A program made the translations under genes and the position numbers. A stretch of 64,000 nt of DNA from a virus (lineage: Duplodnaviria; Caudoviricetes). This document shows, piece by piece, positions 4,121-35,249 of the stretch (the stretch's first letter is position 1; each line of letters begins with the position of its first letter). The stretch covers positions 4,656 to 68,655 of IMG/VR virus record IMGVR_UViG_3300038393_003183, one strand, 5' to 3'. Below the pieces are notes generated by a model that saw only the letters and a list, made by a program, of their open reading frames with translations, searched no databases and was not told the origin of the DNA.

Positions 4121-6484
4121 ATGGAAACAATCGAACAGGAACGCGCGCAGCAGGAGTACATCGAGGCCGCTGCCGCCGGGATGGAGCGTGACGACACCGT
4201 CGCCTACAACCCCGTCGACAGCCTCGGCACGCTGCTGCTCGCGGAGTTCAAGCAGGCCGAGAACCAGAGGCAGGAGACCGAGCAACGCTGGCTCAAGGAC
4301 CTGCGCCAGTACCGCGGCATCTACGATCCCGACGTGCTGGCCCTGATCGGCCCCAAGCGCAGCAAGGCGTTCGTGCGCGCCACCCGCGTCAAGATCAAGA
4401 CCGCCAATGCGCGCGTGGCTGACCTGCTGTTCCCAAGCGGAAGCGAGCGCACCTGGACTGCTGAACCCAGCCCCATGCCCAGCATCGACCGCGAAACGAA
4501 GATGCAGATCATCGGCGGGCTGCAACAGGCGCTGGGACGCCAGCCGACGCGCCAGGAGGTGGAGGAGGGCGTCAGGAAGGTGGTCGCGCAGGCCGCGAAG
4601 AAGATGGTGCAGGTGATCGATGACCAGCTCGGGGAGGCCGACTACGCCGCCACCGCGCGCAAGATTCTGCACTCGGGCCACCTGTACGGCACCGGCATCC
4701 TCAAGGCGCCGCTGGTCGAGCGCAAGACCCGCTCCAAGTTCGTGATCGAGAACGGCAGGTGGGTGATGAAGACCGAGTCCTACGTGGTCCCCTTCGTGGA
4801 GTACGTGCCGCTCTGGCGCTGGTATCCCGACATGGCCGCGACCACGCTGGACGAATGCCGCTACGTGTACGAGCTGCATGTGATGACGCGCGCCAAGCTG
4901 GCCAGCCTTGCCAAGAAAAAGAGCTTCAAGGGGCAGGTGATCCGCGACTACATTCTGGCCAACCCCAAGGGTGCCAAGACCCCGCGCTACTTCGACAACG
5001 AGATCCGCGACATTGGCGAGCGCCGGGCCGCGCACCCGACCGACGACGGCAGCTACGAGATTCTGGAGCGGTGGGGCTGGCTGGACGGCGAGACGCTGGC
5101 CAACGCCGGGGTGGCGGTGCCGCCCGACCGGATGCATGAGACGTTTTTCAGCAACGTCTGGATGCTGCCCAACGGCGACGTGGTCAAGGTCGTGCTCCAG
5201 CCGATCAACGGCGTGACGTGGCCCTACCACCTGTACTACGTCGACAAGGACGAGACCAGCATCTTCGGTGACGGCTTCGCCTCGATCCTGCGCGACGACC
5301 AGACCATGATCAACGCCGCCACCCGCATGGTGCTGGACAACGCGGCGCTGACCGCCGGGCCGCAGATCGAGGCCAACATGGCGCTGCTGTCGCCCAACGA
5401 GCGCGCCGACGACATTTACCCATTCAAAATCTGGCTGCGCAACGGCCAGGACCCGAGCGTCCCCGCCCTCCGCGTGCTGGCGATCCCGAACGGCCTCGAG
5501 GAACTGATGCCGATCGTGGAAATGTTCAAGATGAACGCCGACGACGTGTCGGCCATCCCGCGCTACATGCAGGGCGAGAACTCGACCACCGGCGCGGCGG
5601 GCACTGCCTCGGGCATGAGCATGCTGCTGGCCAATGCGTCCATCGTGATGAAGGACCTGCTGACCAATTACGACTCGGTCACGCGCAGCTTCATCGAAAG
5701 CCTGTACTTCTGGAACATGCAGTTCAACCCCGACGAGACGATCAAGGGCGACTTTGCGATCAAGGCCCGCGGCGCGGCCAGCCTGATGGCCAAGGAACTG
5801 CGCGCCCAGCAGCTCGACCAGTTCGCCGCCACCATCACCCCCGAGGACGCGCCCTACGTCAAGCGCGAGGAGCTGCTGCGCCAGCGCGCCGAGGCGCACG
5901 ACCTCGCCTCGATCATCAAGACCGAGGAGGAGGTGCAGACCGAGCAGAACACCGAACAGGCGCAGCAGGCGGCGGCGATGGCCCAGAAGATGCAGCAACT
6001 CCAGGTGGAGAACGCCACCCTCACGGTCAAGAAGCTCGAAGCCGAGATCGCGCGCACCGCCGCCGATGTCGAGCGACTGCAGGCCATCGCCACCAAGACC
6101 AACGTGGACGCGGCCTACGCCGGGATGCAGGCGGGCGGGGTGGCCGCCACCAATGCCGCCGTCGCCCCGGCTGGCGATGCGATCCTGCTGTCGGCGGGCT
6201 ACATCGACAAGACGCCCAAGAACCTCGATCAGGGCGGGCAGCCGCCGACCGGCCTGCCAAACCCGCCCGTGCAGGGCATCCCCAGCCCGGCCCAACCCGC
6301 GTTTGGGATGCCGCCCGCTGGTGCGCCCCATGGCGACGATGCGCCGCTCACGCCCGCCGCCGAAGCGGCCCAGCCGCAGCCAGACAGTGCGACGGCGGGC
6401 CTGCATGGCGCTGCCGCCGGGGCCGATGTCGGCCACGAACGCGGCATCGAGACCGCCCGCATCGACGGCCAGCCAGGAACATGA
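4121..6484 (+). CDS. Portal protein (podovirus type, long C-terminal barrel and Pro/Ala-rich tail)
   Basis: 787 aa directly after terL. It has GTGILK, DQTMINAATRMVLDNAAL and AIPRYMQG segments and a Q/A-rich coiled-coil C-terminus. Confidence 0.88.
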   Translation: METIEQERAQQEYIEAAAAGMERDDTVAYNPVDSLGTLLLAEFKQAENQRQETEQRWLKDLRQYRGIYDPDVLALIGPKRSKAFVRATRVKIKTANARVADLLFPSGSERTWTAEPSPMPSIDRETKMQIIGGLQQALGRQPTRQEVEEGVRKVVAQAAKKMVQVIDDQLGEADYAATARKILHSGHLYGTGILKAPLVERKTRSKFVIENGRWVMKTESYVVPFVEYVPLWRWYPDMAATTLDECRYVYELHVMTRAKLASLAKKKSFKGQVIRDYILANPKGAKTPRYFDNEIRDIGERRAAHPTDDGSYEILERWGWLDGETLANAGVAVPPDRMHETFFSNVWMLPNGDVVKVVLQPINGVTWPYHLYYVDKDETSIFGDGFASILRDDQTMINAATRMVLDNAALTAGPQIEANMALLSPNERADDIYPFKIWLRNGQDPSVPALRVLAIPNGLEELMPIVEMFKMNADDVSAIPRYMQGENSTTGAAGTASGMSMLLANASIVMKDLLTNYDSVTRSFIESLYFWNMQFNPDETIKGDFAIKARGAASLMAKELRAQQLDQFAATITPEDAPYVKREELLRQRAEAHDLASIIKTEEEVQTEQNTEQAQQAAAMAQKMQQLQVENATLTVKKLEAEIARTAADVERLQAIATKTNVDAAYAGMQAGGVAATNAAVAPAGDAILLSAGYIDKTPKNLDQGGQPPTGLPNPPVQGIPSPAQPAFGMPPAGAPHGDDAPLTPAAEAAQPQPDSATAGLHGAAAGADVGHERGIETARIDGQPGT

Positions 6485-6922: not shown

Positions 6923-7160
6923 CAGCCTCCAGTTGCGCGCCGCAGTCGCGCACGAACTGGCCGAGCTGCACCAGCTACGCGCCACGCTCCCGCTGCGCCA
7001 GTTGATCACGCTGCTGGACACGCTGATCGACTCGCATCTGGAGGACCTGACCACCATCGACCCCGACCACCTGCGGTTCAAGCAGGGCGCGATCCGGCAG
7101 CTCCAGTGCCTGCGTGCGGTCCTGCTGGAAGACCATCCCAACCTGTCACCGAAAGCCTGA
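6915..7160 (+). CDS. Small head-assembly protein (Bbp19-like)
   Basis: 81-aa helical protein with a KQGAIRQL motif, in the portal-to-scaffold position typical of this phage type. Confidence 0.5.
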   Translation: MRDSLQLRAAVAHELAELHQLRATLPLRQLITLLDTLIDSHLEDLTTIDPDHLRFKQGAIRQLQCLRAVLLEDHPNLSPKA

Positions 7161-7162
7161 GC

Positions 7163-7633
7163 ATGCCGTTCGCCTCCCATACCGACCGAATCCGCTCAAC
7201 CCCGGCCACGCGGCGCCGGGACGACAACGTGCGCGCCATCATCACCGCGCTGCGCGAGCGCCACCTGATGCGCGACGAGATCGCAGCCCTGATCAACATG
7301 GGCCGCTCGGGTGCCAACAAGTACGTGGCGATGCTGCGCGAGGCGGGCGTGATCGAGATCGAGCGGTACGTGGCCAAGACGGTTTGGGCCACCGGCAAGC
7401 CGGTGTACCGCCTGAACCCCGACACGGCGCTGGTCGACGGCTACCTGCGCTCGCTCGACACCGGCACCGTCAGCGTGACCAAGCCGGTGCGCGAGATCGA
7501 CCACACGCGCCATGTCCACCTGACCAGCGACGACTGCAACTACCACATCAAGCTGGCCTCGGTGCGCATCCCGCCGCCCGACCCGCTGCTGGCCGCGTTC
7601 TTCGGGCTGGCCAAGCCGGAGCAGCACGCGTGA
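7163..7633 (+). CDS. Winged helix-turn-helix DNA-binding protein
   Basis: MRDEIAALINMGRSGANKYVAMLREAGVIEIER...KPVYRL has wHTH geometry. Confidence 0.7.
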   Translation: MPFASHTDRIRSTPATRRRDDNVRAIITALRERHLMRDEIAALINMGRSGANKYVAMLREAGVIEIERYVAKTVWATGKPVYRLNPDTALVDGYLRSLDTGTVSVTKPVREIDHTRHVHLTSDDCNYHIKLASVRIPPPDPLLAAFFGLAKPEQHA

Positions 7634-9951
7634 GCGGGCTGACCTTCGGCAGCGTGTGCAGCGGCATCGAGGCCGCCAGCGTGGCGTGGCACCCGCTGGG
7701 GTGGCGCGCGGCGTGGCTGGCCGAGATCGAGCCATTCCCGTCGGCGGTGCTGGCGCACCACTACCCCGACGTGCCCAATCTGGGCGACATGACCAGGATC
7801 GCCGCCATGGTGCGCGCCGGGGAGGTCGCCGCGCCCGACGTGCTGGTGGGCGGCACCCCGTGCCAAGCCTTCTCTGTTGCCGGCCTGCGCCGCTCGCTTG
7901 ATGACGCGCGCGGCCAGCTTTCCCTCGCTTTCGTGGACCTCGCCAATGCCATCGATGCAGCTCGATCTGTTCGCGGTGAACCCGCCGCCATCATCGTCTG
8001 GGAGAACGTCCCAGGAGTTCTTACTACAGCCGACAATGCGTTCGGCTGCTTCCTTGCTGGCCTTGCCGGAGAAGACGAGGCACTTGTCCCGCCAGGGAAA
8101 AAATGGGCGAACGCTGGTTGTGTGTATGGACCCCAGAGAACAGTCGCATGGCGGATCACGGACGCCCAATTCTTCGGAGTGGCCCAACGGCGCCGCCGTG
8201 TGTTCGTTGTCGCAAGTGCTAGAGAGGACTTCGATCCCGGCGAGGTACTTCTTGAGTTCGACGGCGTGCGCCGGGATACTGCGCCGAGCCGACAAGCGGG
8301 CCAAGACCCTGCCGCCGGCCCTGCGCATGGCGCTCGAATCGGTAGCCATTGGGATGGCGAGTTCCCCCACCCGACACTGAACCAGTCCACCACCGGCGCG
8401 AGCGGCATCGGCATGTCCAATCAGGCGCTGTTCAGCCAGCGCGGCGCGTACCTGGTCGATCCCGCGCTGGCCGACCGCTGGCCCGCCGACCTCGCCTCGA
8501 CCCTGAACGCGTCGTTCGGCTCCAAGCTCGGGCTGGAGGACCAGCACATCCGCAGCGGCGCGCCGCTGTTCGTGCTGGGCACCCCGCCCGTGGCGGGCAC
8601 GCTCGACACGCAGTGCGGTGGCCAGAAGCTGACCCACCAGACGATCCTCAACGGCCATGTCATCGGCACCATCACGGCGCGCATGTTCAACGCGCTCGGC
8701 GCGCGCGACGTGGAGGAGGGTGCGCTGCTGGCCTGCGTCACGCAGGGTGGCGGCTTCGGCCAGTTCAGGGAAGCGGAAGTCAGCAGCACGCTGCGTGCCG
8801 ACGGCGGCGATCAGGGCGGCGGCAGCGAGTCGCTGGCAGCCTACGCGTTCCAGCCGCGCATCGCGCGCAACGGCCGCGGCGACATGGGCGATCTGGTCAA
8901 CGCCCTGACGGCGCAGGCCGGGGAGACGGGCAAGGGCGATGCCGCGCCGTGCGTGGCCTACGCGATCCAGGCGGGCGCTACCCGCGTCAACCCGGCAAGC
9001 GGCCCCGACGGCGTGGGCGTGCAGGAAGCCATCGCCTACACGCTAGAGGCCCGTGCCGAGGTGCAGGCGGTCGCGTTTTCCTGCAAGGACAGCGGCGCCG
9101 ACGCCTCGGTCGAACTGGCCCCGACGCTGCGCGCCATGGGCTACAGCGGCAGCCACGCCAACGGCGGTGGCCAAATGGCCGTGTGCGTCACGGGCGAGAT
9201 CACCCACACGCTCAAGGCCGACGGCTTCGACGCCAGCGAGGACGGCACGGGCCGCGGCCAGCCGATCGTGGCGGCGTTTGCGGAGAACAGCCGCGCCGAG
9301 CTGCGGCTGGAAGGCGGCGACGGCTCGCGCACGGGGGCGCTCAGCACGGGCGGCGGCAAGCCGGGGCAGGGCGTGCCGATGGTGTTCACGGGCGACGGCA
9401 TCGTGGCCGACCCGCTCAGCGCCAACGAGGCCAAGACCTACACCCATGAGGGTTCGACGTTCCGGCTGCACAACTGCATCGGGCAGCCCGTCACCGCGAC
9501 CAGCTCGGGGCGCGGCTGGTGGTCGCAGTCCGAGGTCGGTGCCACGCTGCGCGCCCAGGACAGCCCGATCAAGGCCGACACGCTGGCGGCGACCAGCATG
9601 GCGGTGCGGCGCCTGACGCCGCGGGAGTGCGAGCGGCTTCAAGCATTCCCTGACGACTATACGCTGATCCCGTGGACCGAATACCAGCGCATGCAGAAGC
9701 GCGCGGCCAAGCACGGCACGTCGTTCGAGGAGGAGCTGCGCAAGCATGGCAAGCCCCTGCGCGGCACGGCCACGCCGGCCGAATGCCCGGACGGCCCGCG
9801 CTACAAGGCGCTCGGCAACTCCATGTGCGTCAACAACATGCGCTGGATCGGCCAGCGAATAATGCTGGGCCTGTCAAGGCCGCAGCCGATCCCCGACAGC
9901 CCGCCGCGAGCGGGCTTTTTTACGCCCGCCGAGGAGGTTGTGACCGCATGA
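7630..9951 (+). CDS. DNA cytosine-C5 methyltransferase with greatly expanded variable region
   Basis: GTG start coupled to the upstream stop. Motif I SVCSGIEA, IV GGTPCQAFS, VI WENVPG, VIII QRRRRVF, IX RRLTPRECERLQAFP, X YKALGNS. Confidence 0.93.
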   Translation: MSGLTFGSVCSGIEAASVAWHPLGWRAAWLAEIEPFPSAVLAHHYPDVPNLGDMTRIAAMVRAGEVAAPDVLVGGTPCQAFSVAGLRRSLDDARGQLSLAFVDLANAIDAARSVRGEPAAIIVWENVPGVLTTADNAFGCFLAGLAGEDEALVPPGKKWANAGCVYGPQRTVAWRITDAQFFGVAQRRRRVFVVASAREDFDPGEVLLEFDGVRRDTAPSRQAGQDPAAGPAHGARIGSHWDGEFPHPTLNQSTTGASGIGMSNQALFSQRGAYLVDPALADRWPADLASTLNASFGSKLGLEDQHIRSGAPLFVLGTPPVAGTLDTQCGGQKLTHQTILNGHVIGTITARMFNALGARDVEEGALLACVTQGGGFGQFREAEVSSTLRADGGDQGGGSESLAAYAFQPRIARNGRGDMGDLVNALTAQAGETGKGDAAPCVAYAIQAGATRVNPASGPDGVGVQEAIAYTLEARAEVQAVAFSCKDSGADASVELAPTLRAMGYSGSHANGGGQMAVCVTGEITHTLKADGFDASEDGTGRGQPIVAAFAENSRAELRLEGGDGSRTGALSTGGGKPGQGVPMVFTGDGIVADPLSANEAKTYTHEGSTFRLHNCIGQPVTATSSGRGWWSQSEVGATLRAQDSPIKADTLAATSMAVRRLTPRECERLQAFPDDYTLIPWTEYQRMQKRAAKHGTSFEEELRKHGKPLRGTATPAECPDGPRYKALGNSMCVNNMRWIGQRIMLGLSRPQPIPDSPPRAGFFTPAEEVVTA
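7946..8380 (+). CDS. Nested +1-frame gene: putative accessory (beta-type) polypeptide of the C5 methyltransferase
   Basis: Open +1 frame wholly inside the MTase gene, encoding EWPNGAAVCSLSQVLE...YFLSSTACAGILRRADKRAKTLPPALRMAL. Main-frame codon bias is visibly degraded over this interval. Start is 7946 or 7955. Confidence 0.65.
   Translation: MPSMQLDLFAVNPPPSSSGRTSQEFLLQPTMRSAASLLALPEKTRHLSRQGKNGRTLVVCMDPREQSHGGSRTPNSSEWPNGAAVCSLSQVLERTSIPARYFLSSTACAGILRRADKRAKTLPPALRMALESVAIGMASSPTRH
9898..9921 (+). terminator. Intrinsic terminator-like hairpin inside the 3' end of the C5 MTase gene
   Basis: AGCCCGC-cgcga-GCGGGCT followed by TTTTT. Confidence 0.6.
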
Positions 9952-11201
9952 GCGGCACGATCCTGTTTGGCGACTGCCGCGCCAGCCTGCACCAGATGGC
10001 GGCTGCCGGCGTCAAGGTGCAGATGTGCGTCACCAGCCCGCCGTACTACGGATTGCGCGACTACGGCCACGACGGGCAGATCGGCCTCGAGGAGACGCCC
10101 GAGCAGTACATCGCCCATCTGGTCGAGGTGTTCCGCGCCGTGCGCGAGGTGCTGGCCGACGACGGCACGCTGTGGGTCAACATCGGGGACAGCTACGCGC
10201 AGGCGGGCGGACGCGGCGAGCAGGGGGCCACCAGCGCGCGCCGGGGCCGCAGCAACGTGGCGGCGCAGGAAAAGCGCCAGAGCATGAAGCCGCCCATGGG
10301 CTGCAAGCCGAAGGACCTGATCGGCATCCCGTGGATGCTGGCGTTCGCGCTGCGCGCCGACGGCTGGCACCTGCGCCAGGACATCATCTGGCACAAGCCC
10401 AACCCGATGCCCGAGAGCGTCACCGACCGCTGCACCAAGGCCCACGAATACCTGTTCCTGCTGTCGAAAGGCCCGCGCTACTTCTACGACCATGAGGCGG
10501 TCAAGGAGGAGGCGGTCGGCAACCCGTCGGGCAACAAGGAACGCCGCGCCCGCCCTGACGCCGAGGCGCTGCGCGAGCTGGGATTCCAGCGCGGCGCGCA
10601 GGCGGGATACATCCCATGGCTGGGCGACGAGAAGCGCAATCGGCGCTCGGTCTGGAAGATCGCCACCAAGCCGTACGCCGGCGCGCACTTCGCGGTGTTC
10701 CCGCGCGAACTGGTCGAGCCGTGCATCGAGGCGGGCACCAGCGAGCGGGGCCACTGCCCGCAGTGCGGCGCGCGCTGGACCCGCGTGGTACGCACCCAGC
10801 GCACGCTGCAAGGCGGCAGCGCGCGCGCCGGGCGCTCGCTGGATGAGATCAACGCCAGCGGCAAGCACCTGAACGGAGGCAGCAGCGGCAACCGCACCCT
10901 CAAGGGCGGGCCGGTACTGGCCAGCACGACGCTGGGCTGGCAGCCCGGCTGCGCCTGCGGCACCGAGCCGGTGCCCGATGTGGTGCTGGACCCGTTCATG
11001 GGCAGCGGCACCACCGCCGAGGCGGCAATCCTGCTCGGGCGCGGATACGCCGGCTGCGAACTGAACGAGAACTACAAGGCGCTACAGGACGCGCGCATCG
11101 CCGCCGCCCGCACCGCCGTGGCCACGCCGCCGCTGCTGGAGGACATCGACGTGCGCCAGATGACGATCTTCGACACCGCAACCAGTGAGGAATGCCCATG
11201 A
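9948..11201 (+). CDS. Beta-class amino-methyltransferase (SPPY, N4-cytosine type) with Cys-rich insert
   Basis: TSPPYY catalytic motif precedes DPFMGSGTT (SAM binding); IIWHKPNPMPE; insert HCPQC...CAC. Confidence 0.9.
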   Translation: MSGTILFGDCRASLHQMAAAGVKVQMCVTSPPYYGLRDYGHDGQIGLEETPEQYIAHLVEVFRAVREVLADDGTLWVNIGDSYAQAGGRGEQGATSARRGRSNVAAQEKRQSMKPPMGCKPKDLIGIPWMLAFALRADGWHLRQDIIWHKPNPMPESVTDRCTKAHEYLFLLSKGPRYFYDHEAVKEEAVGNPSGNKERRARPDAEALRELGFQRGAQAGYIPWLGDEKRNRRSVWKIATKPYAGAHFAVFPRELVEPCIEAGTSERGHCPQCGARWTRVVRTQRTLQGGSARAGRSLDEINASGKHLNGGSSGNRTLKGGPVLASTTLGWQPGCACGTEPVPDVVLDPFMGSGTTAEAAILLGRGYAGCELNENYKALQDARIAAARTAVATPPLLEDIDVRQMTIFDTATSEECP

Positions 11202-11611
11202 CGCAGTTGACGATCCCGATGCACGAAGGCCGCCGCCACCGTATCCACCTCAAGCAGGAGCAGCATGACCAGGTGCGCACGCAGTTGGGCGAGTGGGTCG
11301 GCCATGGTAGCCGCCTGTGGCCTGACAGCGTGATGGCGCGCGTGATCGGGCGGGCGCTGCCGTTTGCCGTCACGCCCAGCCACGTCAAGGTGGCGCGCGT
11401 GCGTCTGGGGCTGCTGATCCCGCGCGGTGCGCCGTCGGCACAGGACCACGCCACACTTAGCGCGGCGCTGGGCGAGGCACCAGCGGCAAAACCCGACCCG
11501 ATGGCAGAAGCGGCCGAGCTATTGGAGGAGTGGGAAGCCGAGAAGGTGGCGCTGGCCGCACGCTACCTGCCGCGCATCCAGCATCTGCTCGGACGCCGTC
11601 CCAGCGCATGA
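11198..11611 (+). CDS. Hypothetical protein
   Basis: ATGA-coupled on both sides; 137 aa. Confidence 0.6.
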   Translation: MTQLTIPMHEGRRHRIHLKQEQHDQVRTQLGEWVGHGSRLWPDSVMARVIGRALPFAVTPSHVKVARVRLGLLIPRGAPSAQDHATLSAALGEAPAAKPDPMAEAAELLEEWEAEKVALAARYLPRIQHLLGRRPSA

Positions 11612-11727
11612 CGCACAGCGACACCGACCTGCTGAAATTCTGGCTGCTGGTGGTCGCCATGCACGCGTTCAGGCTCGGCATCTGCTTCTGGGAAGTGCGG
11701 CGCAAGGGGAACGACGATGAGTCCTGA
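11608..11727 (+). CDS. Small membrane peptide (39 aa)
   Basis: MTHSDTDLLKFWLLVVAMHAFRLGICFWEVRRKGNDDES; coupled to both neighbours. Confidence 0.45.
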   Translation: MTHSDTDLLKFWLLVVAMHAFRLGICFWEVRRKGNDDES

Positions 11728-12925
11728 GCCGTTCACCTTGCACCTGGGCGACTGCGTCGAGGTGATGCGCGCCATGCCCGAGAACAGCATCGACGCCATC
11801 GTGACCGACCCCCCGTATGAGCTGGGGTTCATGGGCAAGGGCTGGGACGCCAGCGGCATCGCCTACAGCGTGGCCATGTGGCGCGAGGCGCTGCGCGTGC
11901 TCAAGCCGGGCGGGCACCTGCTGGCGTTCGGCGGCAGCCGCACCTACCACCGCATGGCGTGCGCGGTCGAGGATGCGGGCTTCGAGATCCGCGACCAGAT
12001 CATGTGGGTGTACGGCGACGGCATGCCCAAGTCGCGCAACATCGCCAAATACGACCTCAAGGCGCAGGCCGCGCAGGCGTGGGCAGGCTTTGGCACGGCG
12101 CTGAAACCGGCCCACGAACCGATCGTCATGGCGCGCAAGCCGCTGGCCGGGACGGTGGCGCAGAACGTGCTGGCATGGGGCACCGGGGTGCTGGACATTG
12201 ACGGCTGCCGGGTGCCGGTGGATGACGCCAGCTACGCCCGCAACTGCTCGGGCGACCGCGGCCATGGCGGCACGCGCAGCGCCGCACAGGAGGGCGCGAC
12301 CGACCTGCACACGGGCGGCGGCAGCGCCGCAGCCGGGCGCTGGCCCGCGAACCTGATCCACGACGGCAGCGCCGAGGTGGTGGCGCTGTTCCCGGCGCAG
12401 GCCGGCGCGGTCGCCCCAGTTCACACCCGACGCGCCGACAAGTTCCGCACCGCCTACGGCGCGTTCGCCGGCAACGTGGACGAGCAGGGCAGCACGTTCC
12501 AGGGCGACAGCGGCAGCGCAGCGCGCTTCTTCTACTGCCCCAAGGCGACCCGCAGGGACCGCAACGAGGGCTGCGAGCACATGGAGAAAAAGCCGCTGCT
12601 GTGGTCTTCCGGCACCAAGAACCCCGGCTCGTTTCAGGCCGAGGGCACCGACAAGAGCAGCCAGAACTTCCACCCGACCGTCAAGCCGACCGACCTGTGC
12701 GCCTATCTAGTGCGGCTGGTGGCGCGCCGGGGCGCGGTGGTCTACGACCCGTTCATGGGTTCCGGCTCGACCGGCAAGGCGTGCATGCGCGAGGGCGTGC
12801 GCTTCGTCGGCTCGGAGCTTGCGCCCGAATACATGGCCATCGCGCAGGCCCGCATCGCGCGCGAGTATGCGCGCATCGGCGCGCTAGAGCCAGCGCCCGT
12901 GCCGCAGCTCGACCTGTTCGCCTGA
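11717..12925 (+). CDS. Beta-class amino-methyltransferase (DPPY, N6-adenine type)
   Basis: VTDPPY, HPTVKP and DPFMGSGST motifs. Confidence 0.9.
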   Translation: MSPEPFTLHLGDCVEVMRAMPENSIDAIVTDPPYELGFMGKGWDASGIAYSVAMWREALRVLKPGGHLLAFGGSRTYHRMACAVEDAGFEIRDQIMWVYGDGMPKSRNIAKYDLKAQAAQAWAGFGTALKPAHEPIVMARKPLAGTVAQNVLAWGTGVLDIDGCRVPVDDASYARNCSGDRGHGGTRSAAQEGATDLHTGGGSAAAGRWPANLIHDGSAEVVALFPAQAGAVAPVHTRRADKFRTAYGAFAGNVDEQGSTFQGDSGSAARFFYCPKATRRDRNEGCEHMEKKPLLWSSGTKNPGSFQAEGTDKSSQNFHPTVKPTDLCAYLVRLVARRGAVVYDPFMGSGSTGKACMREGVRFVGSELAPEYMAIAQARIAREYARIGALEPAPVPQLDLFA

Positions 12926-27272: not shown

Positions 27273-27746
27273 ATGCTGATGACCTTACTGTCGATGCTGG
27301 GCGGCGGCTTCATGCGCCTGCTGCCCGAACTGATCGGCCTGTGGAACAAGGCCACCGACAACAAGCACGAACTGGCCATGCTGGACAAGCAGCTCGCGCT
27401 GGAGGCGGCGCGCGGCGCCGAATCGCGCGCGACCATGCAGGTGCAGGGCGACATCAACGAGGTGCTGGCCCTGATCGACGCCCAGAAGACGGCGCTGGCC
27501 AGCCAGATGCAGAAGACCGGCATCTGGATCGCGGACGTGCTGAACTTTCTGGTGCGCCCGGTCGTGACCTACTTCTTCCTGCTGCTGTTCGGCGCGGTCA
27601 AGGTCGCCACCATCGTGCTGGCGATGCAGCAGACCGATGCCTGGCACGCGATCCTCGGGTCGTGGGACGCGGACGACCGCGCCACCTTCTCTGGCATTTT
27701 AGCTTTCTGGTTCGTCGGCCGCGTGTTCGACCGCCGCAGCAAGTGA
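27273..27746 (+). CDS. Putative holin
   Basis: N-terminal amphipathic helix, VRPVVTY motif, two C-terminal hydrophobic segments, FWFVGRVF; overlaps the endolysin. Confidence 0.65.
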   Translation: MLMTLLSMLGGGFMRLLPELIGLWNKATDNKHELAMLDKQLALEAARGAESRATMQVQGDINEVLALIDAQKTALASQMQKTGIWIADVLNFLVRPVVTYFFLLLFGAVKVATIVLAMQQTDAWHAILGSWDADDRATFSGILAFWFVGRVFDRRSK

Positions 27747-28273
27747 ACGCCGTCGACCTCGCGCTGCCGCTGGTGACAGCCTCCGAAGGCTGCTGCCTGC
27801 GCGCCTATCCCGACCCGGCCTCGCCGCTGTCGAAGGCGCTGGCCAAGGCCGGGCTGCTGCGCGCGTACAAGGCGGGGCGGGCCGAGATCCCGCCCGAGCT
27901 GCGCCACCTCGACGGCAGCCCGTGGACCATCGGCTACGGCGAGACGCAGGGGGTGGTGGAGGGCATGGTGTGGACGCAGGAACAGGCCGACGAGCGGGTA
28001 CGCCTGCGGGTGGCCGGGTTCGCGTCCGGCGTCCTCAAACGCTGCCCGCAACTGGCCTCCGAGCCGCCGCAGCGCCTCGCTGCCTGCACTTCGCTGGCCT
28101 ACAACATCGGGCTGGGGGCGTTTGCCGCCAGTTCGGTGCGCAGCCGCACCCAGCGCCGCGAGTACCAGGCGGCGGGCGATGCCTTCCTCAACTGGAGGAC
28201 GGCGGGCGGGGTGGTCATGCCAGGGCTGGTGGCGCGGCGCGAGCGCGAGCGGCTACTGTACCTGTCGGCGTAG
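27743..28273 (+). CDS. Endolysin, GH24 lysozyme
   Basis: E15-x8-D24 and WTIGYG(T62), AYNIG and GLVARRERE motifs. Confidence 0.9.
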   Translation: MNAVDLALPLVTASEGCCLRAYPDPASPLSKALAKAGLLRAYKAGRAEIPPELRHLDGSPWTIGYGETQGVVEGMVWTQEQADERVRLRVAGFASGVLKRCPQLASEPPQRLAACTSLAYNIGLGAFAASSVRSRTQRREYQAAGDAFLNWRTAGGVVMPGLVARRERERLLYLSA

Positions 28274-28280
28274 CGTGCCT

Positions 28281-28532
28281 TTACCACGACGGCCGCTTGT
28301 CGTCGGCGGCGGTGCCCACCTGGGCGCGGTAGACGCGGTCGTCGGCACCATGCCAGATCAGCACGACGCCGCGCACGCTGTCTGAGTTGTGGCCGGTGCC
28401 CTTACCGTCCAGTTCCATGAAGCGGTACGGCACATGCAGGCCGATGACGGTCTCGTGCTCATCGTAGCGTTTCCCGATCAGCGCCTTGGCGATTGCCGCC
28501 AGCTTGTCCTTGCGGGTTGGTCGATTGCCCAT
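28281..28532 (-). CDS. Hypothetical protein (antisense block 2)
   Basis: 83 aa; part of a coupled minus-strand operon. Confidence 0.6.
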   Translation of the reverse strand: MGNRPTRKDKLAAIAKALIGKRYDEHETVIGLHVPYRFMELDGKGTGHNSDSVRGVVLIWHGADDRVYRAQVGTAADDKRPSW

Positions 28533-28534
28533 TT

Positions 28535-28732
28535 TCAGGTGCCCACGCCAGGCAGCCCGCCTGCTTGCTGGTACAGCTCGGCCAACTGCGCATCAATGGC
28601 ATCGATCTCGGCGCGCAGCAAGACGGCGGCGGGGTGCTCGGCCACCAGCTGAGCGAACATGACATTGATGCAGTGGATGCGGTCGAGCAGTTCGTGCTTG
28701 AGGAACGGGTCATTGATCTCGGTGTCTTCCAT
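28535..28732 (-). CDS. Hypothetical protein
   Basis: AAGGAG RBS; 65 aa. Confidence 0.65.
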   Translation of the reverse strand: MEDTEINDPFLKHELLDRIHCINVMFAQLVAEHPAAVLLRAEIDAIDAQLAELYQQAGGLPGVGT

Positions 28733-28744
28733 GTGCTTGCTCCT

Positions 28745-28978
28745 TCAGATCGGCTTGTCGTTGACGGGGTCGATGTCAGGCATCTTGAGGCCGGTGTCGC
28801 GCTCGATCTGGGCCGTGATGTCCTGGTGGTCGTCGCCGTACATGATCGCGATGACGATGTCGGTGTCGATGCCCAGTTCGCGCAGCCTGATGAGCATCGG
28901 CTTGCGCTCCTGCAGGCGTGTCAGGTTGCGCGGTTCCAGCCCGAGGATGACGATGTTGCCGGCGCGTGCTTTGATCAT
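28745..28978 (-). CDS. Hypothetical protein
   Basis: AGGAGG RBS; 77 aa. Confidence 0.7.
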   Translation of the reverse strand: MIKARAGNIVILGLEPRNLTRLQERKPMLIRLRELGIDTDIVIAIMYGDDHQDITAQIERDTGLKMPDIDPVNDKPI

Positions 28979-29013
28979 GGGTTCCTCCTGTTCAGATGCT
29001 GTTCAGATGCGGC

Positions 29014-29190
29014 TCATGGTGATTTCCTGCCCACGCGGTGCCAGTCTTCGCGGCTCAGCAGCTCAGACAGGGCCGCGATCGGGCCGAACCGGAAGCCCGG
29101 CGCGAGGCGATGCCAGTAACGCGAGCGGACCGGCTGGCCGCGCCACTTGCCGAGGTAGTGCCCTTCGCGGGCGTTGCGGCTGGTGCTCAT
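29014..29190 (-). CDS. Small basic protein, SRNAREG family (copy 3; below the ORF-track cutoff)
   Basis: Hand translation: MSTSRNAREGHYLGKWRGQPVRSRYWHRLAPGF... (58 aa); ATGA-coupled to the upstream gene. Confidence 0.65.
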   Translation of the reverse strand: MSTSRNAREGHYLGKWRGQPVRSRYWHRLAPGFRFGPIAALSELLSREDWHRVGRKSP

Positions 29191-29441
29191 GCGCTTCCCT
29201 GCGCTCGACCAAGCAGCGCGCGCGCTTGCAGCACGAATGCGCTCACCTCTGCGTTGGTGGGGAACCGATGCCGCACCATCGCCAGCAGCGTGGCGGCATC
29301 GCCTGGCTGGCCACCGTGGTGCAGCACGCCGGCGCGCATGACGTCGACCAGTTCCTCATGCGTGACCTGACCCGCTTGGGCGCGCGCCATCAGTTGGTCC
29401 AGCTTGCGTTTGCCCTCATCTTCCATGCTCGCCCCCTTCAT
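29187..29441 (-). CDS. Small helical protein, GxVTHEEL...FPT family (copy 3)
   Basis: AGQVTHEELVD...RHRFPTNAEV. Confidence 0.7.
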   Translation of the reverse strand: MKGASMEDEGKRKLDQLMARAQAGQVTHEELVDVMRAGVLHHGGQPGDAATLLAMVRHRFPTNAEVSAFVLQARALLGRAQGSA

Positions 29442-29653
29442 TCCTGACTCAAGTTCAACCGCTCAAGCACCACGGCGCACTGGTCTGGCATGGCGTCGAT
29501 CAGGGCCAGCAGCAGGCGCGCTGACTGGTCTGGCTCGCGCAGACCCTGTTCCCAATTGCGCAGGGTGCCCAGCGACAGCCGATAACGCACGCAAAATCGT
29601 TCCTGCGACAGACCTAGCCGCGCGCGCAGTGCCTTGATGTCCTCTGGACTCAT
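29438..29653 (-). CDS. XRE-family HTH protein (HigA/YiaG-like antitoxin type)
   Basis: IKALRARLGLSQERFC...LGTLRNWEQGLREPDQSARLLL. Confidence 0.85.
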   Translation of the reverse strand: MSPEDIKALRARLGLSQERFCVRYRLSLGTLRNWEQGLREPDQSARLLLALIDAMPDQCAVVLERLNLSQE

Positions 29654-30090
29654 CCTATGTCGCCGCACCCGATCCCGTGGTCGGCGGCGTGGCACACGTC
29701 CACTGGCGCGCTCTGGTCGACCGGATCGACCCATGACGGCTGGCCGCAATAGCGGCAGGCGAACGGCGCCGTGGTGGCCGAGACGAACACCCGGCGCACC
29801 AGCGCGAGCAGGTCGTCGTGCGTCATTTGCCGGAACGCGTGGCGCATCTGGGCGATCTCGCGCTGCTCTTGCGGCTCCAGCCCTTCGATGAACTCGTCCA
29901 CGCTGACGCCGCTGCGCGGGATGTAGCGCGGCCGGCGCACCAGCAGCGCGCGGCGCGCGCGCTTGCTCATCACGGCCCACGCCGTGTCCGCGTCCACGCC
30001 CATGCCGATGAACATGCGGTGCCGGGTGCGCACGGCCTTGCCCTGCCAGCGCCCCACGAAGCGGCCCTCGCGCGCGGTGCGGCTCACCAT
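29650..30090 (-). CDS. Protein with N-terminal SRxAREG module and C-terminal CxxC...CH motif
   Basis: MVSRTAREGRFVGRWQGKAVRTRH...; CRYCG...VCH. Confidence 0.6.
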   Translation of the reverse strand: MVSRTAREGRFVGRWQGKAVRTRHRMFIGMGVDADTAWAVMSKRARRALLVRRPRYIPRSGVSVDEFIEGLEPQEQREIAQMRHAFRQMTHDDLLALVRRVFVSATTAPFACRYCGQPSWVDPVDQSAPVDVCHAADHGIGCGDIG

Positions 30091-30479
30091 TGGCCCTGTC
30101 GTTTCAGTAGCGCCTCCACGAACTCGGGCGGCAGCAGGCAGTTGGTCGGTGCCTTGGCGAACAGCGGCGCGATGTCGTCAGGTTTGTAGCCCGCCAGTCC
30201 GCAGCCGATCGGCGTGACCTGAAAGGTCAGCTCAGGGTGGGCATCGGCAAACCCAAGGAAGATGCCGACATGGATGGCGATTACCTCCAGCGGCAGCAGT
30301 TGGCTCGGATCGGTCAGTTTAGCGCCGTTGCGCCCATCTTTCGTCGGGATCGCGTAGCTGGTGCCCTGCAGCCCTTCGCCCTGGCCGTAGATCGCGCCGC
30401 GATGCCGGCGCGCGTACAGCGCCGCGCCCTTGCCGTGGCGCCCGGCGAGGTTGGAGCCGAACACGAAGATGGTGGTCAT
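30084..30479 (-). CDS. Macro-domain-like phage protein (A1S_2505-like)
   Basis: IFVFGSNLAGRHGKGAA, SYAIPTK and TPIGCGLAG motifs. Confidence 0.75.
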   Translation of the reverse strand: MTTIFVFGSNLAGRHGKGAALYARRHRGAIYGQGEGLQGTSYAIPTKDGRNGAKLTDPSQLLPLEVIAIHVGIFLGFADAHPELTFQVTPIGCGLAGYKPDDIAPLFAKAPTNCLLPPEFVEALLKRQGQW

Positions 30480-30486
30480 GTTGCGC

Positions 30487-30855
30487 TCATCGCAGCGTCC
30501 CGAGGTCGGCCACGCCGACCATCAAGGCGGGCGGGCGCGGAATCTCGACACCGACCGGGCACCACAGGTGCAGGCAGTACGGGTGGTTGTTGACCCAGTC
30601 CGCTTTCGGCGGGTGCAATTGCATCACGCAGTCGTCGTCATCCCAGAACAGCTCCTTGACGCGGCACATTTCGGTCCATGTCGGGCAGCGGTGCGGCAGC
30701 GACACCGACACATGCTCCCAGCCTTCTTCTGCCGAGGCGATCACGCGCAGCACGTCGGGATGGCGCACCGGCACGCGGAACAGGCCAGCTCGGCCCGGCT
30801 CGGTGGCGAACGCTCCCTTGCGCACGCGGTTGGGTTCGGGGTAGTGGAAAGTCAT
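30487..30855 (-). CDS. Conserved phage protein (DUF7694-like, His/Trp-rich)
   Basis: GWEHVSVS...CPTWTEMCRVKELFW...QLHPP...HPYCLHLW. Confidence 0.7.
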   Translation of the reverse strand: MTFHYPEPNRVRKGAFATEPGRAGLFRVPVRHPDVLRVIASAEEGWEHVSVSLPHRCPTWTEMCRVKELFWDDDDCVMQLHPPKADWVNNHPYCLHLWCPVGVEIPRPPALMVGVADLGTLR

Positions 30856-30877
30856 TTTCAATCCTGAGAACGGCACC

Positions 30878-31183
30878 TCATCGCGGCACCACCACCAGCC
30901 GCATCCCCAGCGCGTCCAGCACCTTGAGGATCGTATCGAGGCGCGGCGAGCTGCCGGCGCGCAGCGCCTTGTAGAGCGCCTCGCGCGCGAGGCCGGTGTG
31001 CGCGGCCACGACCGGCATGCCGCGCGCCTTGGCCAGTTCGCCCAGCGCGAACGCCAGCAGCCCGGCATCCCGGTCTTCCAGAATGTCGTTCAGGTAGGCC
31101 GCCACCATGGCGGGGCTGTCGAGGTAATCGGCCACGCGGAACTCGGGCATTTGCCTGATCTTGTCGATGTCGAAGTCGCTCAT
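30878..31183 (-). CDS. Addiction-module antidote protein (HI1420 family HTH)
   Basis: ADYLDS...AYL...ALGELAKARGM...AAHTGLAREALYKAL...PRLDTILKVLDALG. Confidence 0.85.
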   Translation of the reverse strand: MSDFDIDKIRQMPEFRVADYLDSPAMVAAYLNDILEDRDAGLLAFALGELAKARGMPVVAAHTGLAREALYKALRAGSSPRLDTILKVLDALGMRLVVVPR

Positions 31184-31470
31184 TGGTGTTGTCGTTCCAG
31201 ATGCCATTTGGCCGCCGCAAACCACGCATCGCGCAGCAGCCAGTCGCCCGCGCGCGCCGTCTCCAGCCAGTCGTTGAAGGCCAGACGGCTCAGCGCAATG
31301 GCGGCCGGATGGACGCCCCGGCGCACCAGCGCCGCCTGCCATGTCTCCCAGCCCGTGACGCGCACGCGGCCCGGCTCGCCCGCCAACTGCTCAAACCACT
31401 CGTTAAATTGCAGGTCCAGCGCGTCGGCCAAGCCGTCCGCGAACGCCTGTTCGTAGTCCGGCTTGTCCAT
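31180..31470 (-). CDS. Trp-rich hypothetical protein with internal duplication
   Basis: FNEW...WETWQAA and FNDW...DAWFAA. Confidence 0.6.
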   Translation of the reverse strand: MDKPDYEQAFADGLADALDLQFNEWFEQLAGEPGRVRVTGWETWQAALVRRGVHPAAIALSRLAFNDWLETARAGDWLLRDAWFAAAKWHLERQHQ

Positions 31471-31748
31471 CAGTGGGGCTGCGAGGTTTCGCGGATGTTC
31501 GTGATGACCCTGGCTTCCAGTCCCATGCCCTGCATGAAGGATCGGATCGCCCACTGGCGTTCGGCGTCCACCTCGCCGCCGTTCTGGATGCCAGACTCGA
31601 TCACCTTCTGCGCAAACATGCCGAACAGGGTCAGCACGAACCCTGGCGGCAGGTTCATTTCGCGCGCCAGCGCGGTGATCTTCTCGGCGTAGTCGAGTCC
31701 CTTGCGGGCCAGTGCTTCCTGTTCTGGTGTCAGCTGTGGTGTCGTCAT
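31470..31748 (-). CDS. Hypothetical protein, ITxLARE...FGMFA family (copy 1)
   Basis: Paralog of 37912-38169. Confidence 0.7.
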   Translation of the reverse strand: MTTPQLTPEQEALARKGLDYAEKITALAREMNLPPGFVLTLFGMFAQKVIESGIQNGGEVDAERQWAIRSFMQGMGLEARVITNIRETSQPH

Positions 31749-31754
31749 GGCGTG

Positions 31755-32108
31755 TCAATGAAGGGTGGTCGGTCGCGCATCGCCGGCCTGCTCGCGGGCC
31801 TTCTGGGTCGCCACCGCGACGATGATCCCCGACAGCATGAAGCGCCCGACGCCGCCCATCAGGAAGTCCAGCAGGTCCTGCTGCGTTGGGCATTTGTCGC
31901 GCAGCTTGGCCAGCACCACCTCGCGCGAGGCGGCGGCGGCCTGCGGCACGTAGCGCACCATCTGGTCGGCCAGCTCCTCATGGGTGATGGTGCCGCTCCT
32001 GACGTGCTCCACGAACGCCAGCAGGGCTGGTTCGAGCAGCGCGAAGTATTCAGCCGGGATGCCGCGGAACAGCAGTTCCAGCGGGTTGTTGATCGGATTG
32101 TCGTTCAT
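31755..32108 (-). CDS. GxVTHEEL...PT family protein (copy 2)
   Basis: GGAGGA-type RBS; SGTITHEELAD...RDKCPTQQDL. Confidence 0.7.
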   Translation of the reverse strand: MNDNPINNPLELLFRGIPAEYFALLEPALLAFVEHVRSGTITHEELADQMVRYVPQAAAASREVVLAKLRDKCPTQQDLLDFLMGGVGRFMLSGIIVAVATQKAREQAGDARPTTLH

Positions 32109-32125
32109 CGCGTCTTCCTCCGTTC

Positions 32126-32467
32126 TCAGTGCGCTCCCTGCTGGTCGAGCAGCCACGTCATGCGCAGCGACTGGCGGGCGCGGAACCAGCGCAGGTAGGC
32201 GCGCGCCAGCGCGGCGCGCACCACCTTGCCCTGGCCATGCCGCCCGCGCACGAACCTGCCCCACGCGTAGCCGGTAAAGCGGCCCTCGCGGGCGTTGCGG
32301 CTGGTCTGCGGGGGAGGCGGGGCGAAGACGGCCATGTAGCGCAGCGCGGCGCGCTCGACCCATTCGTCCAGGGACGCGCCGGCGCAGTACGCGGCCACGG
32401 CCACCCTGCAGATCAGGGGCCACGGCAGGACCAGCCGGAGATTCTGGTACTCCTCAAAGAGCTTCAT
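32126..32467 (-). CDS. Protein with RHH-like N-half and C-terminal SRNAREG module
   Basis: AAYCAGASLDEWVERA followed by TSRNAREGRFTGYAWGRFVRGRH. Confidence 0.6.
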   Translation of the reverse strand: MKLFEEYQNLRLVLPWPLICRVAVAAYCAGASLDEWVERAALRYMAVFAPPPPQTSRNAREGRFTGYAWGRFVRGRHGQGKVVRAALARAYLRWFRARQSLRMTWLLDQQGAH

Positions 32468-32718
32468 TGCAGGTCACGGGCCGAATGCGGCTGGGGAACC
32501 ACCATGCGGTAGATGCGCAACTGCCTCTGTAGGTGGGCAATCAGTTGCTCCTGCGTGGGATAGCGCGCGTGTATCTCGACCAGCAGCTCGTCGCGCGACT
32601 TCTCCCAGCCGACCACCTGGGCGGCAGTCAGCAGCATGTCCGCATATTCGTCTGCGGTGACTTCGCCGGCCTCGATGCGCGCCGCCATGGCGGCGAACTG
32701 GCTGGTCAGGCTGCTCAT
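32464..32718 (-). CDS. GxVTHEEL...PT family protein (copy 1)
   Basis: AGEVTADEYAD...HARYPTQEQL. Confidence 0.7.
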   Translation of the reverse strand: MSSLTSQFAAMAARIEAGEVTADEYADMLLTAAQVVGWEKSRDELLVEIHARYPTQEQLIAHLQRQLRIYRMVVPQPHSARDLQ

Positions 32719-32864
32719 GCCTTGTACCAGATCAGGATCATGGACACCGGGATGGCGAAGGTCAGGGCGACCGCCGCAATCAGCTCCGAATGGGTGAAGC
32801 CGACGGCGGCGGCGCAGGCACCGCAGACTGCGATGGTGGCAACGGCGCGACCGTGCTTTTGCAT
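32715..32864 (-). CDS. Small two-TM membrane protein
   Basis: 49 aa, hydrophobic; coupled to both neighbours. Confidence 0.55.
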   Translation of the reverse strand: MQKHGRAVATIAVCGACAAAVGFTHSELIAAVALTFAIPVSMILIWYKA

Positions 32865-32865
32865 G

Positions 32866-33123
32866 TCAGTGGGCAGACTCGGTCGCGGGCCGGAACACTT
32901 CCAGCTCCTCGGGCGCGCCAAAGCGCACCAGCCGCACGGACACGCCGGAACCGTCCACGGCGCGCTGCACCATCGGGCGCATCTGCTCCAGGTCTTCCTC
33001 GGCCGAAGTCACCATCGGGGTCGTGCCGCCGCCCACGTCGACGGCGACGATGCCTTCGACACCGGAATCGTCACTGGGCGGGACGCCGAGGAACGCCCAC
33101 AGGCTTGTGCTTTGAGTTGTCAT
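32866..33123 (-). CDS. Hypothetical protein, first gene of antisense block 2
   Basis: GGAG RBS; TATACT -10-like element at 33157-33152. Confidence 0.65.
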   Translation of the reverse strand: MTTQSTSLWAFLGVPPSDDSGVEGIVAVDVGGGTTPMVTSAEEDLEQMRPMVQRAVDGSGVSVRLVRFGAPEELEVFRPATESAH

Positions 33124-33185: not shown

Positions 33186-35249
33186 ATGCCGAACGCTTTC
33201 AAACTCGACCGCTTTCTGGGGCTGATCCCGCGCCTGCCAGACACGCTGTTGCCGCCTACCAACTCGACGGTGGCTGAAAACTGCGACTTTGCCTATGGCG
33301 AACTGCGCAGCCTTGCCGCCAACCTCCCCGAGCATGTGCTGGACCACAACGCGGCCAGCCTGTACACCGACGACGGGGCGCTGTTCTACACCTGGCCGGT
33401 CGATGTCGACGCGGTGCGCTCGCCCATGGCGAACGACACCTTCAACCGCCTGTACTACACCACGCCGGGCGACTTCCGCGTGGCACCGCGCGACGGCATG
33501 CGACCGGGCGGCGGCGAGCCGCCCAGCAGCTACCGGGTCGGCGTGCCCAAGGCGGCCACCGCGCCAGGCACCGTGCTGGCACCCGATGCCACCGTGGTCG
33601 ATACGGCCACCAACGTGGGAGTGGTGCCCGTGTACGCGCACGGTCCCGGCGACCCGACCGGCTTCGAGTACCACGCCGGTGCCGGCGTCGGCCCGGTGAT
33701 CGCCACCCTGACCCTGACGCTGCCCGCAGCGGGCAGCGTGGCCGCGCTGGTGACGTGGCAGTCGGTGTCGGGCATGGCCGGGGACAACTTCAACGTGCGG
33801 GTCGAGCTGACCGCCGACGGCGCGATGATGGTGGCGCAGTCCGACTCGGGCACCGCTGGCTACGTCGAGCCGCACTTCGCCACCGGGTCCATCGCACTAG
33901 ATGCCGGCGAGCATGAGTTCATCCTGCGCTTTGCCAACGACTGGACCCGCGGCTGGTGGTATCTGGGCCAGTGGAGCGTGACGATCCTGCCCGTCAAGGT
34001 CGAGGGCGAGGTGCTGCCCACGCCCGACAAGCCGGTGGACGTGACCCGCGCCTACGTCTGGACCCATGTCAATATCTACGGCGAGGAAGGGGTGCCGTCG
34101 CCGCCGACCGTCATCACGATCCCGTCGGGCAGCGCGGTGGACCTGGACATCAACTACCAGGTGCCGACCATCGACTACGCGCCGATCAAGGAACTGCGCA
34201 TCTATCGCACCCCCGACGCGTCCACGATTGCCGAGTATTTCTACGTCGGCAGCATCAATGTCGAGGGACTGCCGAGCCAGCATTTCAGCTTCCACGACGC
34301 GGTGGCGGCGGCCCAGCTCAACGAGCAACTGGCCTCAATGAACTACTACCCGCCCGATCCCGATCTGGTGGGGCTGACGGCGCTCCCCAACGGCATCCTG
34401 ATGGCATGGAAGGGCAACGAGCTGCACTTCTCGGATGCCTACAAGGCGTGGTCGTGGCCACCGCAGTACGTGCTGACCTTTGGCGACTACGACATCGTCG
34501 GTGCCATCACGGTCGGCTCGTCGGCGCTGATCACGACCACCGGCAAGCCGTTCCTGGTGGCCGGCGTGTCGCCTGACGCGATGACCAACTCGGTGCTCAA
34601 CATCCAGCAGGCCGGGGTCTCGAAGTGGGCGCTGGCCGATCTCGGCGGGGTCATCGCCTACGCCAGCCACGACGGCATCGTGGTGTTCGACGGCGGCCTG
34701 CCGTCGATGGCCATGTCGGAAAATTTCTTCACGCGCGACGTGTGGCGTGCGCGCTACGCGCCAGGGCTGGCGACCATGCACTTTGCCGTGTGGGACGGGC
34801 GCCTGATCGTGTATTCGGCTGACGACACGTTCACCCCGTTCATGATCAGTCTGGACGAGGCGCGCGGGGCGATGACCGAACTGCCGGGGTTGGTGGCCCA
34901 GAGCTCGTTCGTCTCGCCCGTGGCCGACCAGTGCTACATCGTCAACGACGCGGTGCTGCTGCGCATCGGTGGCGGGCCGGACCAGATTACGACCTGGACC
35001 AGCCATACCTTCATCCAGAACCAGCCGTGCAATTTCAGCGTGGCGCAGGCCGTGTGCGACGGCGTGTGGGAACTCCAGTTCTATGCCGACGGCGTGCTGC
35101 GCCACACGCAGGCCGGGGTGTCGGGCAATGTCACGTTCCGGCTGCCAGGCGGGTTCCTGGCCGACCGCTGGCAGATCCGCATCCAGGGCAGCGGCCGCTT
35201 CCGCGAGCTGCGCGTGGCCGAAAGCGCCGCCGACCTGAAAGGCTTGTGA
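33186..35249 (+). CDS. Tail nozzle / tail tubular (stabilisation) protein with inserted beta-sandwich
   Basis: FLGLIPRL...AENCDF..GEL N-terminus; beta-propeller-like middle (FSDAYKAWSWPPQY); 687 aa. Confidence 0.75.
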   Translation: MPNAFKLDRFLGLIPRLPDTLLPPTNSTVAENCDFAYGELRSLAANLPEHVLDHNAASLYTDDGALFYTWPVDVDAVRSPMANDTFNRLYYTTPGDFRVAPRDGMRPGGGEPPSSYRVGVPKAATAPGTVLAPDATVVDTATNVGVVPVYAHGPGDPTGFEYHAGAGVGPVIATLTLTLPAAGSVAALVTWQSVSGMAGDNFNVRVELTADGAMMVAQSDSGTAGYVEPHFATGSIALDAGEHEFILRFANDWTRGWWYLGQWSVTILPVKVEGEVLPTPDKPVDVTRAYVWTHVNIYGEEGVPSPPTVITIPSGSAVDLDINYQVPTIDYAPIKELRIYRTPDASTIAEYFYVGSINVEGLPSQHFSFHDAVAAAQLNEQLASMNYYPPDPDLVGLTALPNGILMAWKGNELHFSDAYKAWSWPPQYVLTFGDYDIVGAITVGSSALITTTGKPFLVAGVSPDAMTNSVLNIQQAGVSKWALADLGGVIAYASHDGIVVFDGGLPSMAMSENFFTRDVWRARYAPGLATMHFAVWDGRLIVYSADDTFTPFMISLDEARGAMTELPGLVAQSSFVSPVADQCYIVNDAVLLRIGGGPDQITTWTSHTFIQNQPCNFSVAQAVCDGVWELQFYADGVLRHTQAGVSGNVTFRLPGGFLADRWQIRIQGSGRFRELRVAESAADLKGL

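Follow-up and report, generated by a model that had tools for sequence, protein, structure and literature searches.

Do two repeated families of small genes that lie side by side in a phage genome form a dedicated pair, or are they separate families that only meet there? The question is raised by a minus-strand island (positions 29,014 to 32,718) in a 64,000-nucleotide stretch of viral DNA (Caudoviricetes; IMG/VR record IMGVR_UViG_3300038393_003183, positions 4,656 to 68,655), hereafter the window, in which the first-pass annotation saw three copies of each of two mini-gene families, T and S, and proposed an amplified, diversifying two-gene module. Comparison with related genomes points elsewhere: T and S are probably unrelated, lineage-restricted small-protein families, carried separately as accessory genes by an uncultivated phage, with no dedicated pairing. 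The two would expand and shuffle on their own, and the T-S adjacency in the window would be a side effect of cassette mosaicism, in an operon where translational coupling joins almost all neighbouring genes. Set against the related genomes, the apparent new two-gene module fails, and in that respect the present account is a correction.

The genes themselves were verified on the minus strand. T1 (84 amino acids, 32464-32718), T2 (117 amino acids, 31755-32108) and T3 (84 amino acids, 29187-29441) match one another in pairwise BLASTP with E values of 3e-4, 1e-4 and 5e-5 (29-31% identity over 50-55 residues), and a profile built from them finds those three alone in the whole 68,655-b record; T2 has longer N- and C-terminal ends and a GGAGGA ribosome-binding site. 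S1 (113 amino acids, 32126-32467), S2 (146 amino acids, 29650-30090) and S3 (58 amino acids, 29014-29190) share a box of about 23 residues with pairwise E values of 6e-6, 3e-5 and 4e-8. The DNA common to two of the S copies is an exact 20-mer, ACCAGCCGCAACGCCCGCGA, which occurs twice, in S3 (29165-29184) and in S1 (32286-32305), both on the minus strand, while shuffled sequences give 0.08 copies on average and none of 100 shuffles reaches two. The T1/S1 and T3/S3 junctions are 4-nucleotide ATGA overlaps, consistent with the translational coupling that had been noted, and GC content at third codon positions (GC3) is 0.75-0.93 in the six T and S open reading frames (ORFs), as expected for coding frames in a genome of 67% GC. 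The description of T and S as real, diversified families, unrecognised by every library tried and located in an accessory island, was likewise borne out.

The pairing did not withstand the comparison. Coupling of T to S is not special because overlap is generic along the operon, and chance alone would place a T directly before an S at least twice with a probability of about 0.06-0.07, given three genes of each family in an operon of 16. In the 12 related viral records, which were found through the S box so that the tally is biased toward S, S genes occur in 11, with one to five matches each (two to five in ten records) and mostly in tandem clusters, while T genes occur in four; seven of the 11 S-positive records are devoid of T. 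The complete genomes G002, G004 and G011 carry S arrays and no T, and in G006 some 40 kb separate the T gene from an array of three S genes, which adjoins the terminase genes. At locus L031, four overlapping tandem S genes directly follow a Lar restriction-alleviation gene, again with no T. Five loci (L030 and L034-L037), on the other hand, contain T genes, between one and three each, but lack S over the surrounding 5-6 kb, and the T genes of L030 and L034-L036 stand in tandem. Orthologues of the window copies also keep other company: in L007 and L030 a T3-type gene precedes, in this order, an unrelated gene of 68-72 amino acids, a zinc-ribbon gene and an orthologue of window gene g77 (56% identical), so that, relative to these loci, S3 replaces the two unrelated genes between T3 and g77 in the window. 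A T1-type gene in L034 and a T2-type gene in L049 have no S nearby, nor is there a T near an S1-type gene in L046. T and S are occasionally close to each other in other genomes (L029, L007, L023 and L015), with no dedicated linkage across relatives. The gene neighbourhoods indicate that a loose association within one accessory region is real and an obligate pair is not.

The history of T agrees with this separation. When searched against 1.84 billion representative proteins, the T profile gave 73 matches at E ≤ 1e-3, about 60 of which are stand-alone proteins of 70-100 amino acids, all metagenomic and unnamed; long proteins among the matches (P0023, P0057 and others) hit only through short repeated motif fragments and were hence not counted as relatives. 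A 56-sequence alignment (A4) shows a conserved G-x-[VI]-T-x-[ED]-[ED] in helix 1-2 and R...L..LR..[FY]PT ahead of the last helix, and AlphaFold2 models T3 with four helices at a predicted local distance difference test score (pLDDT) of 88.7, so the family would be a separate four-helix protein of about 80 residues. In the maximum-likelihood tree, T1, T2 and T3 fall into three separately supported clades: the nearest orthologue of T1 is P0022 (50% identity, clade support 97/84) and that of T2 is P0067 (clade support 99/83), while T3 is 51% identical to P0004. Each window copy is closer to a protein of another contig than to its paralogues in the window. Because T1-T3 group in this way, the tree identifies the three copies as old paralogues, not as products of recent amplification.

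S is the more notable of the two families, and genomes carry up to five tandem copies of it. Profile searches of 5.8 billion proteins retrieved about 40 members, whose alignments show a near-invariant core, S-R-N-x-R-E-G-x-[YF]-x-G-x3-G-x3-R. Within it, the 11-residue box S-R-N-x-R-E-G-x-Y-x-G (the SRN box) is almost invariant while its surroundings are swapped, fused or duplicated. In genes of an arms race, an invariant core with swapped surroundings is usually the sign of a common interaction surface. At the DNA level, a degenerate pattern of the box matched 14 IMG/VR stretches and one metagenome contig, the latter a true match; the four matches in 185,579 species genomes lie in unrelated frames and phyla and were dismissed as chance. 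The 28 unique DNA versions of the box encode its fixed residues by several codons (CGC, CGT, CGG, AGA and AGG for arginine, GAG and GAA for glutamate), and because of this codon variety what is conserved is judged to be the peptide and not a site in DNA or RNA. Without exception, the box is on the coding strand and in the reading frame of its gene; its place varies from N-terminal through central to nearly C-terminal, and the proteins that carry it are otherwise unrelated. An RNA hairpin within it (GCCC-GCGA-GGGC) was considered and rejected, as its stem is broken by synonymous changes in many copies.

What surrounds the box is variable. The tails are strongly basic and form at least three subfamilies: the "long" type, laid out as box, hairpin, helix and a terminal PLPxRRPRY, to which S2 with its N-terminal box and C-terminal extension belongs together with P0009 (61% identical to S2), P0015 and others; a basic helix ending in DQQGA (S1, P0012, P0013 and P0109); and the type of S3, a short form that is 63% identical to a relative of 110 amino acids in L015 (5491-5820). 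In stand-alone S proteins such as S2 and S3 the box is N-terminal. In S1 it lies at residue 55 (DNA 32276-32305, minus strand), between an N-terminal part resembling a ribbon-helix-helix (RHH) domain and the basic helix, an architecture shared by P0013 and P0017. An RHH-like domain precedes the box in P0014 and P0089 as well, a zinc-ribbon-like segment precedes it in P0113, and a domain of about 110 residues (STVFLGLDH...LFETM) ends in it in L007 (6773-7147) and P0011. That domain, with motifs STVFLGLDH and LFETM(I/V)F, recurs in relatives from L011-L014, L022, L023 and L029, has no Pfam or PHROG match, and regularly closes with an S box and about 9-17 further residues, right ahead of the overlapping start of the next gene. 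P0011 (191 amino acids) is a fourth S-box protein; its contig equals in length (96,631 b) that of the window's proteins and is apparently the window's own, although P0011 has no match in the 68,655-b record. For residues 1-75 of S2, AlphaFold2 gives a short helix, a beta hairpin and a further helix (pLDDT 76.6). S arrays also stand beside terminase genes in the relatives L040, L041 and L042 (records G004, G001 and G009), with a serine recombinase gene of about 200 codons between, and in L039 (G005) the S genes are convergent, with copies on both strands. Small BrxR-type winged-helix genes adjoin S genes in two unrelated contigs, L046 (2508-3218; PF26109) and L040 (3524-3781; a look-alike judged by eye).

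Taken as a modular family, S would consist of the SRN box, predicted to form a short helix and a beta hairpin, followed by variable basic tails. The box might be a common binding unit, with nucleic acid as the likeliest ligand and a single common protein partner as the alternative, and would anchor tails of different function, for example regulators or effectors of host takeover or anti-defence. Nucleic acid is put first because of the charge of the proteins (18 lysines and arginines against 7 aspartates and glutamates in S1, 12 against 4 in S3), the arginines that never vary and the fusion of some members to domains of a DNA-binding type, whereas docking or targeting to a protein is suggested by the combination of a shared box, diverse tails and tandem arrays. 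Several points weigh against the account as a whole. Besides the bias of the tally, many of the loci are short fragments, of 5-16 kb, with surroundings of ±5-6 kb for T genes. In L029 an S-box gene is directly followed by two T genes, and T and S lie within 0.9-1.5 kb of each other in L007, L023 and L015, so that some loose functional link between the two may exist. Nucleic-acid binding is a best guess drawn solely from charge and from the RHH and zinc-ribbon fusions, and the RHH assignment of S1 itself is weak.

The same loci would suit the idea that T and S are physical partners, be it inhibitor and target, toxin and antitoxin, or chaperone and basic client, and that the pair is present in the window in two or three diversified versions. 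The two T-then-S junctions with ATGA overlap and the one S-then-T junction of the window fit it, as do L029, the T gene and S box within 1-1.5 kb in L007, L023 and L015, and the complementary character of the proteins, T being neutral to acidic and S strongly basic. Partnership nevertheless seems improbable in view of the S arrays without T in most related genomes, the T arrays without S, and the different neighbours of the orthologues of each window copy. The gene order is inconsistent, with T first in places and S first elsewhere, models of toxins, antitoxins and defence systems remain unmatched, and the adjacency is marginally above chance (p about 0.07). A toxin/antitoxin pair kept adjacent across genomes, one of the possibilities first raised, is contradicted by the seven S-positive records without T and the five loci with T and no S. 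Less probable still is a reading in which the box is the translation of a DNA-level site, marking the edge of a cassette or serving in recombination as in shufflons and invertase systems. It would account for the exact 20-mer common to S1 and S3 and for the position of the box at gene junctions, and a serine recombinase gene does adjoin the S arrays in L040-L042, with S on both strands in L039. Cassettes of this type, however, need inverted, near-identical repeats and a nearby recombinase, whereas all three box copies of the window are direct repeats and the island contains no recombinase. The fixed residues are moreover written in different codons, with first- and third-position changes (AGA against CGC), while the amino-acid pattern is kept, and the small GCCC...GGGC hairpin is disrupted by synonymous changes in many copies. 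Shufflon-like rearrangement of the S arrays was thus considered and found to be unsupported by the codon data.

Also unlikely is the idea of the S box as a signal for targeting or docking, by which small basic effectors of diverse kinds would be brought into the virion or to a single hub and delivered together with the DNA and a giant polyvalent protein. Phage T4 offers the model: its internal proteins IPI, IPII and IPIII are small, basic and diverse, share a short N-terminal capsid targeting sequence, and are encoded by plastic-region genes with an anti-defence role (PMC3012670), making up a diverse defence set with the conserved targeting sequence alone in common (PMC3012670). S proteins resemble them in being otherwise diverse, small and basic with a shared short N-terminal segment, the box, alone in common (A5, A6). 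Their genes form tandem, hypervariable arrays in plastic regions, one of them after the Lar restriction-alleviation gene, and a giant ejected polyvalent protein is made by the same phage. The likeness is one of analogy, not of membership, and there is no sequence similarity to the T4 proteins. Unlike the T4 targeting sequence, the S box has a basic character and need not be N-terminal, fusion proteins carrying it internally or at the C-terminus, and it is predicted to be structured and not a cleavable leader. The S genes of the window run antisense to the late operons, and no prohead-protease site is known for S. A related possibility, which we also regard as doubtful, is that the SRN box is a portable docking module through which diversified small basic proteins, the DNA-binding fusions among them, would all attach to a single partner. 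Candidates for this partner are the T protein, a hub protein of the host, and the virion and ejection machinery around the giant polyvalent protein. If this were true, it would amount to a hub-and-spoke effector system of an uncultivated phage clade, and to a functional parallel to the capsid-targeted internal proteins of T4 arising from an unrelated, structured motif.

On balance, two separate accessory families with a modular S remain the favoured explanation, and both appear to be genuine dark matter of one uncultivated phage clade. As judged from the searches made, T and S are families without described relatives in Pfam, PHROGs, NCBIfam, PADLOC, PDB and 50,697 GenBank phages. None of the six proteins rose above the cut-off in Pfam, PHROGs, NCBIfam or PADLOC, where no homology to a toxin, antitoxin or defence family was found either; the suggestion that one of the partners might belong to a toxin/antitoxin family finds no backing there. 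Against the GenBank phage records, tblastn gave no match at E ≤ 1 for either T3 or residues 1-75 of S2. For S, the profile had no match among PDB sequences at E ≤ 10, the model had none in Foldseek and none with Z ≥ 2 in the wide VIA-align search, and the ESM Atlas returned nothing usable. The T model likewise had no Foldseek match in PDB or BFVD at E ≤ 0.001, a best Z of 4.2 in the wide VIA-align search, which is noise level for helical bundles, and in the ESM Atlas only weak structural neighbours with template modelling (TM) scores below 0.5, while the T profile found nothing in PDB beyond EF-hand-like loop similarity (E 0.18 or weaker).

The closest approaches to known families were examined individually. 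T resembles PF11836 (Phage_TAC_11, tail assembly chaperones like gp10 of the gene transfer agent) in being small, helical and of similar length, with an E value of 6.7e-5 for T3, weak matches in 8 of the 56 T members, and an Atlas structural neighbour at TM 0.44. The T3 score, 23.3 bits, is nevertheless below the curated gathering cut-off of 27.8 bits, as are all T scores, and hhalign of A4 against six PF11836 members (A7) gave a probability of 18.6% (E 0.0013, 46 columns). T genes, in addition, lie in accessory islands among helix-turn-helix (HTH), H-NS and CxxCxxCC genes and not in a tail module, where PF11836 genes would stand between those for the tail tube and the tape measure. T was not filed under PF11836 because of the sub-cut-off scores and the low profile-profile probability. 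A VbhA-like antitoxin was rejected for T1 (E 0.021, 15 bits against a cut-off of 25.9 bits), and direct reading of the sequence revealed no inhibitory S/T-xxx-E-G/N motif. The CxxCxxCC gene (PF03692) recurs near T in L007 (7373-7999), L037 (5369-6004), L036 (1809-2453) and L030 (8921-9535), directly upstream and overlapping in L007 and L037, and accompanies T more consistently than S does. The N-terminus of S1-type proteins has the strand-helix-helix pattern of RHH antitoxins and Arc-like regulators. The likeness is weak in the relatives P0014 and P0089 (Antitox_RHH, E 0.019; phrog_582, E 0.0012; RelB-like, E 0.066), and S1 itself has no RHH match, the assignment being carried over from these relatives. 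Unlike RHH antitoxins, S1 continues with the S box and a basic helix, with no known toxin-binding tail and no adjacent toxin gene. A HicB-like impression of the P0099 N-terminus was not confirmed by Pfam and was not used.

The six genes belong to an accessory operon of 16 small genes on the minus strand (28281-32921), delimited from the ORF list, in which most junctions overlap at stop and start codons or nearly abut, tight packing extends across all genes, and GC3 is 0.72-0.93. The operon is antisense to both flanking late-gene blocks, identified as a plus-strand lysis cassette on the left (27273-27746 is holin-like and is followed by a lysozyme-like frame that ends at 28273) and a plus-strand internal-virion or nozzle gene on the right (33186-35249). 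It is most likely an accessory cluster of the moron or early type. Two antitoxin-type HTH genes, both on the minus strand, lie within it: an Xre-type gene between S2 and T3 (29438-29653; PF01381, E 1e-6; phrog_2104, E 3e-16), which has an ATGA overlap with S2, and a HigA-like "addiction module antidote" gene (30878-31189; PF21716, E 2e-31). No toxin partner is recognisable for either; they may regulate the operon, which also encodes a DUF7694 protein and a phrog_2072 protein. A promoter and terminator scan of the island gave no signal exceeding that of shuffles. Anti-CRISPR (Acr) loci with their anti-CRISPR-associated (Aca) genes and phage moron islands are likewise arrays of small, fast-evolving ORFans with small HTH genes between structural modules, but no known Acr or Aca family was matched in the island. 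The families are new, then, while their kind is familiar, namely small accessory genes that evolve fast in a plastic part of a phage genome. What deserves an experiment is the conserved SRN box, a short, defined and testable handle on what these phages do to their hosts.

The bearer of the island is an uncultivated phage of about 97 kb. The window is part of an IMG/VR "provirus" record of 68,655 b, trimmed from a contig of 96,631 b. The trimming is probably wrong; the relatives are free phage genomes of 98-118 kb, some of them with terminal repeats. The phage encodes a terminase large subunit, a portal, three DNA methyltransferases, the lysis cassette and internal virion proteins. The three methyltransferase genes (phrog_116 and twice phrog_67) are consecutive on the plus strand directly after the portal gene (7114-12925), which suggests heavy self-methylation as a means of anti-restriction. 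A plus-strand ORF of 6796 amino acids (43325-63715) corresponds to a giant "polyvalent" ejection protein as defined in PMC5512222; residues 35-155 form a glucosaminidase domain, and an ART-PolyVal ADP-ribosyltransferase domain follows about 5,550 residues into the protein. Its relative of 7099 amino acids in L036 adds InPase and SNF2/helicase domains.

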